This document shows positions 2 through 127 of a stretch of 346 bases of DNA, one piece after another. The stretch is from the NCBI RefSeq assembly GCF_003334335.1, contig NZ_QOWQ01000211.1. One strand, written 5' to 3'. A program made the position numbers and the translations under genes. The DNA comes from Escherichia coli (GTDB lineage Bacteria > Pseudomonadota > Gammaproteobacteria > Enterobacterales > Enterobacteriaceae). The stretch's first letter is position 1, and the number at the start of each line of letters is the position of its first letter. The notes beneath the pieces were generated by a model. That model did not search any database, was not told the DNA's origin, and worked only from the letters and a program-made list of their open reading frames with translations.

Positions 2-127
2 GAGCAGGCGATGTTTACCAAAGGTCTGGAAATTCATGTCAGACAGCGCACGATGAAAAAAGAGATTGAAGCGCTGGATGATGCGGAAGCTATACTGGCG
101 TATAAAATCGGTATCACAGACGGCTGA
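2..127 (+). CDS. 3' end of a protein-coding gene of unknown function, probably 5'-truncated by the window edge; C-terminal sequence EQAMFTKGLEIHVRQRTMKKEIEALDDAEAILAYKIGITDG*
   Basis: Frame 2 is open from the window edge to TGA at 125-127, followed in frame by TAA at 128-130. Frames 1 and 3 are closed early (TGA at 67-69 and at 54-56). Codons are mostly enterobacterial-preferred (CTG x3, GCG x4, GAA x3, AAA x4, GAT x3) and first codon positions are purine-rich. In-frame ATGs at 11-13 and 53-55 lack a credible Shine-Dalgarno upstream, so the true start is probably upstream of the window. The opposite-strand frame is also open but reads as F/R/C-rich low-complexity sequence and runs through the downstream hairpin. 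Confidence 0.6.
   Translation, partial: EQAMFTKGLEIHVRQRTMKKEIEALDDAEAILAYKIGITDG

Follow-up and report, generated by a model that had tools for sequence, protein, structure and literature searches.

Locus and reading frame

The window, meaning the complete stretch of 346 nucleotides that was analyzed, opens inside the 3′ end of a protein-coding gene and then runs into noncoding DNA. It is identical in 345 of its 346 bases to the chromosome of Escherichia coli JNEC-KY176 (locus L001), and seven further complete genomes match it at 98% or more. On the plus strand, positions 2 to 124 form an open frame with the translation EQAMFTKGLEIHVRQRTMKKEIEALDDAEAILAYKIGITDG, which is closed by a TGA stop codon at 125–127. 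A preceding sequence-only reading had placed the tail of a CDS at 2–127 with the peptide KKEIEALDDAEAILAYK, and this peptide is found within the translated frame. The AGA and ATA codons to which it had drawn attention, at 41–43 and 92–94, are likewise confirmed when codons are counted from position 2. The window contains the following features:

2..124, plus strand: CDS tail, the last 41 codons, residues 152–192 of a 192-amino acid DUF4376 protein (translation, homology)
41..43, plus strand: AGA codon for Arg165, a residue nearly invariant in the family (codon reading, alignment)
92..94, plus strand: ATA codon for Ile182 (codon reading)
125..127, plus strand: TGA stop codon of the DUF4376 gene (translation, annotated locus)
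128..346, plus strand: first 219 of the ~680 noncoding bp that separate the DUF4376 gene from the eib-type adhesin gene downstream (locus annotation)
138..157, no strand assigned: G+C-rich hairpin 11 nt past the stop codon (plus-strand fold −14.3 kcal/mol, z −2.4)
220..241, no strand assigned: second hairpin of the same type, intergenic and outside the gene (z −3.3 on the plus strand)

The CDS tail is identical to L001:12002–12124, and in JNEC-KY176 the frame concludes a CDS of 579 bp (L001:11549–12127) that encodes the 192-amino acid protein WP_016232115.1, annotated in RefSeq as “DUF4376 domain-containing protein.” Inspection of the upstream sequence, as the sequence-only reading had suggested, adds 151 more open codons and leads to a true start at L001:11549 that bears a Shine–Dalgarno (SD) sequence, AGGAG, 9 nt before its ATG. 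The gene begins 19 nt past the stop of a gene for a 499-amino acid “prophage tail fiber N-terminal domain-containing protein.” At its 5′ end (L001:11545–11565), the JNEC-KY176 gene carries an A7 tract, and translation from the ATG at 11549 begins with MWKKISN. The counterpart in the phage PhiR5_2 (L003:4546–4570) has an A6 tract, as deduced from the translations, and a start 4 nt upstream that gives MNVEKISN. The two ATGs overlap in different frames, and each restores the same downstream frame for one length of the A tract.

In JNEC-KY176, the gene closes a lambdoid tail module with the order tape measure, M, L, K, I, J, fiber gene, and DUF4376 gene. It is followed by ~680 noncoding bases, a gene with a YadA C-terminal domain, a 156-amino acid ORF, an S6 autotransporter gene, and the chromosomal genes potB, potA, and pepT. 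In its first 131 residues, the upstream fiber shares 53% identity with lambda Stf (orf-401), and it also matches PHROG tail-fiber families. The supposition of an accessory or prophage-associated gene was therefore correct, as the gene sits in a lambdoid prophage between the side tail-fiber and eib adhesin genes. The cargo at L001:12809–18887 comprises a 412-amino acid trimeric-autotransporter gene that is 80% identical to the immunoglobulin-binding EibA, a homolog of ORF-156 (phrog_6585), and a 1335-amino acid S6-family (EaaA-like) autotransporter, and its arrangement is the same in the prophage P-EibA. Inside the tail cluster, a porin gene annotated as ompC lies between tail protein M and minor tail protein L (L001:2677–3831), with a GC3 of 0.385 that is low compared with its neighbors.

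Two other patterns within the CDS tail were discarded. Minus-strand ORFs over this part (34–150) match no family, and an inverted repeat (39–49/71–81) that is 82% complementary over 11 nt is read as chance.

Family membership and predicted fold

The gene is already catalogued, both under DUF4376 in RefSeq and as ORF-191 of the P-Eib prophages. The sequence-only reading could not assign the tail to a known family; here it did not hold, as the protein belongs to Pfam DUF4376 and PHROG 1141. The Pfam DUF4376 model (PF14301) covers residues 72–181 with its positions 2–101 of 106 (E 4.9e-20), and PHROG 1141 (category tail) matches the protein from end to end (E 2.7e-78). The 41-amino acid tail taken alone matches the C-terminal ends of phrog_15942, 11571, 7703, and 1141 (E 5e-16 to 2e-12). 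A search of a large protein collection gave 388 homologs from E. coli, Salmonella, and Klebsiella, which carry the precomputed domain PF14301 and, where named, are almost all designated DUF4376. DUF4376 is the sole domain reported, as no other Pfam domain, PF02413 included, was found at E ≤ 10. The protein matched no family in a search of NCBIfam and none (0 families) among the PADLOC defense-system models. A sequence search of the PDB returned no solved structure of the family and only a chance match to the colicin I receptor (E 0.93).

The 41 residues encoded in the window fall inside the conserved part of the DUF4376 family. In an alignment of 62 sequences, 7 of the 28 invariant columns lie in the CDS tail (F156, I162, H163, Q166, R167, M169, and K170). 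The N-terminal module of the protein (residues 2–60, L001:11552–11728) is ~50% identical to a part of a “tail fiber component” found in more than 300 genomes of Pseudomonas PB1-like phages, and the putative tip-binding module is therefore shared far outside the enterobacteria.

An AlphaFold2 model of the 192-amino acid protein was built on the 62-sequence alignment and has a mean pLDDT of 93.6. It starts with three predicted strands (2–10, 17–24, and 31–36) and a helix (42–52), which are followed by a helix (69–89), a hairpin (92–103), a further helix (105–119), and a small hairpin (128–138). The C terminus is formed by a long helix (141–174) and a short one (179–184). The CDS tail (152–192) accounts for the second half of the long helix, the short helix, and a floppy end of the last ~8 residues, which agrees with the earlier view of the tail as probably helical. 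A Foldseek search of the model against the PDB gave no significant match. In BFVD, it matched 43 phage structures at E < 1e-3, which include DUF4376 proteins and one entry named “Phage tail assembly chaperone protein.”

By position and sequence, the gene is the same as ORF-191A/C/D/E of the ECOR-9 prophages P-EibA, C, D, and E (GenBank AF151091, AF151674-6). Protein identity to ORF-191A of P-EibA amounts to 74% overall and reaches 97% (112 residues) over the last 115 aligned positions; at the DNA level, the window and AF151091 are 85% identical. The order of an orf-401-like fiber, orf-191, eib, orf-156, and an eaaA-like autotransporter is also the same. ORF-191A differs in the N-terminal ~70 residues, which are ~35% identical and change in step with a different fiber tip, and in the last seven codons. 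For ORF-191, the GenBank record gives no function and only remarks “similar to a Yersinia pestis pMT1 hypothetical protein.” The homolog is annotated as “tail fiber assembly protein” in the isolated phages PhiR5_1 and PhiR5_2, and the PhiR5_1 protein is 98% identical.

Exchange of N-terminal modules and fiber tips

A DUF4376 gene directly follows a fiber gene in the same orientation in all six loci examined. Three of these loci are lambdoid (L001, L002, and L007), and two have a non-lambdoid tail type (L003, which is PhiR5_2, and L006, which carries an SU10-type adaptor gene). The sixth is a Mu-like prophage (L005), in which the DUF4376 gene stands after the fiber gene in the position of Mu U. 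The side fibers at L001:10030–11529, L003:2568–4529, L006, and L007 consist mostly of collagen-like Gly-X-Y repeats of variable length, which stand between a lambda-Stf-like N terminus and a short non-collagen tip.

Comparison of the loci reveals a consistent pattern of exchange. JNEC-KY176 and PhiR5_2 have the same N-terminal module, and the last ~95 residues of their fibers are nearly identical, whereas the fiber N termini are only 31% identical. In JNEC-KY176 and P-EibA, the reverse is seen: the first ~350 fiber residues are common and the tips almost unrelated, and the first ~70 residues of the DUF4376 proteins differ, while their DUF4376 parts are ~97% identical. One protein (P0052) occurs unchanged with the same fiber tip in two different phage types (L006 versus L007). 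Its fiber has the N terminus in common with the JNEC-KY176 fiber but not the tip, and the N-terminal module differs as well. In a chimeric protein (P0095), DUF4376 follows an N-domain with 49% identity to lambda Tfa (Pfam Caudo_TAP_N), and the tip of the fiber encoded before this protein is 52% identical to lambda Stf orf-314. In total, four tip types correspond to four N-terminal modules and one constant C-terminal module, and the co-variation of module and tip is thus seen over four tip types only.

As the N-terminal module changes with the tip and the C-terminal module stays constant, the pattern fits a division of labor in which the N-terminal module would be specific for the fiber tip, and the DUF4376 body, including the CDS tail, would do the common work. 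By analogy, this common work would be oligomerization. A plausible but tentative extension is that the DUF4376 half may be a universal, fiber-independent assembly module that enterobacterial prophages freely recombine with tip-specific N-terminal modules for unrelated tips. These N-terminal modules would include the classical N-domain of lambda and Mu Tfa, and the tips would include those of collagen-like side fibers.

The gene takes the same place after stf as the gene of lambda Tfa (orf-194) and Mu U (Caudo_TAP, PF02413), and the proteins are similar in length (194 amino acids versus 192). Natural chimeras, moreover, carry the lambda-Tfa N-domain fused to DUF4376 and take the place of Mu U. 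Homology to lambda Tfa was nevertheless rejected, as BLASTP gave an E of 0.067 on a spurious segment, hhalign a probability of 2.4%, and PF02413 no match. The published statement that DUF4376 is the Tfa C terminus (PMC7882524) is not borne out by the sequence or profile comparison made here. The DUF4376 protein is best regarded as a positional and probably functional analog of lambda Tfa and not as a member of its family.

A proposed side tail-fiber chaperone

Positions 2–127 of the window are the 3′ end of a lambdoid-prophage late gene that encodes a two-module protein, probably a side tail-fiber chaperone. Family, position, predicted fold, and co-variation, which are documented here together with the identity of the gene and the modular exchange pattern, make this role the most likely one when set beside the experimental precedent in other phages. 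In the Alteromonas myovirus V22, the DUF4376 protein gp27 is encoded directly after the fiber gene and is essential for active fibers (PMC7289586, PMC10579305), and its relatives have in common only the C-terminal DUF4376 (PMC7289586). The H-fiber of Campylobacter CJIE1 acts as a receptor-binding protein only when it is co-expressed with the downstream DUF4376 gene (PMC7882524). The Alteromonas chaperones have been described with three N-terminal β-strands that join the sheet of the fiber knob, a helical body for which trimerization is predicted, and a β-hairpin “tentacle,” and they have been likened to the intramolecular chaperone domains of the K1F and T5 fibers (PMC10579305). The A5 fiber, in contrast, is functional without its DUF4376 chaperone (PMC10579305), and dependence on the chaperone is therefore not universal.

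The JNEC-KY176 protein resembles V22 gp27 and A5 gp9 in its C-terminal DUF4376, its size (195–239 amino acids in the Alteromonas proteins), and the position of its gene right after a fiber gene. Set beside the description in PMC10579305, it also has the three N-terminal strands, the helical body, and the β-hairpin. The Alteromonas proteins differ in host and phage type, and it is in their system that chaperone activity was tested. Other near systems are the intramolecular chaperone domains of the K1F endosialidase and the T5 L-shaped fiber, as well as prefoldin. The hallmarks of a K1F/T5-type intramolecular chaperone, namely a structural match to solved domains of this type together with a covalent link to the fiber through an autoproteolytic serine, were not found.

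In the proposed mechanism, the variable N-terminal module (approximately residues 1–65; three β-strands and a helix) would be specific for the tip of the fiber encoded upstream, and the conserved C-terminal DUF4376 module (residues 72–181; helices with a β-hairpin) would serve as the common chaperone body. Copies of the protein would bind the distal tip of the nascent fiber through their N-terminal strands and would assemble, probably into a trimer, by way of the helical DUF4376 body. The three fiber chains would thereby be brought into register, so that the collagen-like fiber could trimerize from its C-terminal end. The 41 residues of the window would contribute the last third of the helical body, with a quarter of the invariant family positions. 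Chaperone activity, stoichiometry, and the fate of the protein on the finished fiber are what we infer by analogy with the systems named above.

The main rival to a chaperone is a retained virion component. In this reading, the protein would remain attached to the side fiber as its distal tip or as an adaptor and would aid receptor binding instead of acting as a transient folding helper, with Mu Tfa and the gp38-type adhesins as model cases. PHROG families 1141, 11571, and 1807 are indeed labeled “tail fiber protein” and not chaperone, and several phage records name the homolog a tail fiber protein or component; these PHROG labels, however, are inherited annotations and not tests. Mu Tfa does remain bound to its fiber (PMC7882524), and the co-variation of N-terminal module and tip is equally compatible with a chaperone and with a permanent partner. 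The conserved half, on the other hand, does not change between fibers with unrelated tips or between phages that infect different hosts, and such constancy is unexpected for a receptor-binding surface. The DUF4376 proteins that have been tested are, furthermore, described as chaperones, for which a transient cap role has been proposed. A permanent virion part is thus rather improbable.

The noncoding DNA that fills the rest of the window bears on a second alternative, in which the gene would be part of the eib cargo cassette and act for the immunoglobulin-binding adhesin encoded downstream, e.g. in its expression or export, and not for the fiber. The gene lies immediately upstream of eib in P-EibA, JNEC-KY176, and PhiR5_2, and its 3′ end is common to the P-EibC, D, and E records. 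Gene and eib are, however, separated by ~680 bp and two hairpins, and the edge of the conserved block upstream of eib lies downstream of the gene, at about window 245–265. Fiber-following DUF4376 genes have no adjoining eib in L005, L006, L007, Alteromonas, and Campylobacter, by which this reading is largely refuted and left as very unlikely.

The edge itself is visible as a jump in identity. Window 100–260 is markedly more diverged from P-EibA and PhiR5_2, whereas from approximately window 266 to the eib start codon the three loci are almost identical (window ~245–346, L001:12246–12808). Such a step points to a recombination seam along the left border of a conserved block of ~550 bp upstream of eib. 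Both hairpins (138–157 and 220–241) fold better than shuffled sequences on the plus strand, and their stems are kept in P-EibA and PhiR5_2, while the loops differ. On the plus strand, an A-run stands before each hairpin and thus becomes a trailing T-run on the minus strand, so that a resemblance to intrinsic terminators exists only in the leftward direction. All genes annotated in this region, by contrast, point to the right. At window 266–283 there is a third such hairpin, which is intact in P-EibA but contains a mismatch in the window, and PhiR5_2 carries a 115-bp insertion just past the end of the window that adds one further A-run and hairpin. No Rfam family was found in the window or in the whole intergenic region. 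An 84-amino acid, TTG-initiated ORF with a hydrophobic stretch runs on the minus strand (L001:12218–12472, window 218–346 and beyond). It is probably no gene and was treated as noncoding, because it is interrupted by the PhiR5_2 insertion and has no family match, PHROG included.

Codon usage and distribution bear on a third alternative, in which the window holds the end of a conserved core-genome gene and the rare codons are incidental. The CDS tail has a G+C content of 46.8% (43.6% in the full window). The whole 192-codon gene of the near-identical locus contains three AGA and two ATA codons, i.e. five AGA/AGG/ATA codons or 26 per 1000, compared with 18.8 per 1000 in the prophage tail genes (50/2653 codons) and 2.8 per 1000 in the adjoining core genes potA, potB, and pepT (3/1074 codons). 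Two such codons among 41 have a probability of 0.006 at the core-gene rate and of 0.18 at the prophage tail-gene rate, and both AGA 41–43 and ATA 92–94 are kept in P-EibA and PhiR5_2. The CDS tail has nine nucleotide differences in seven codons, six of these among the last seven sense codons, and the differing terminal codons coincide with the disordered end of the structure model. The sequence-only reading had taken the two codons as a weak hint of an accessory or prophage gene, and the direction was right. The rare-codon signal is real but weak when taken alone for 41 codons, and the origin of the gene is settled by homology.

Among 5426 complete E. coli genomes, no more than 27 match the window at approximately 85% identity or more, and a recognizable copy of the CDS tail is present in 163, with a median of three and up to eight copies per genome, all of them annotated as DUF4376. 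The gene is an accessory, multi-copy prophage gene. This distribution, the phage tail genes on its flanks, and the lack of an NCBIfam core family speak against a core gene, for which no supporting point was found and which is refuted. Neither of the two results that the sequence-only reading had named as contrary to it was obtained, as there is no match to a core-genome protein and the frame is not closed upstream.

Initiation at ATG 11–13 would yield a separate, charged helical peptide of 38 amino acids, and such an ORF exists mechanically in the ORF listing; it was rejected and has a negligible chance of being real, in line with the doubt already raised about it, as another 151 open codons with conserved protein sequence lie upstream in the same frame, its Met is the internal, nearly invariant family residue M155, and no SD sequence lies within 10 bases before it, whereas the true start has one.

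The CDS tail marks the border at which the tail-fiber module of the lambdoid prophage gives way to the virulence cargo with eib, and it thus flags the window as prophage DNA. Beyond correct annotation, its significance is small. The modular pattern matches published work on Tfa and on the DUF4376 chaperones of Alteromonas and Campylobacter and adds no new principle. It has practical value for the engineering of phage and pyocin host range, because a fiber usually must be moved together with its chaperone. If the DUF4376 half does act as a universal assembly module, it would be a second, structurally uncharacterized solution to the job of the Tfa C-terminal domain, and it would offer a portable part for the retargeting of fibers.
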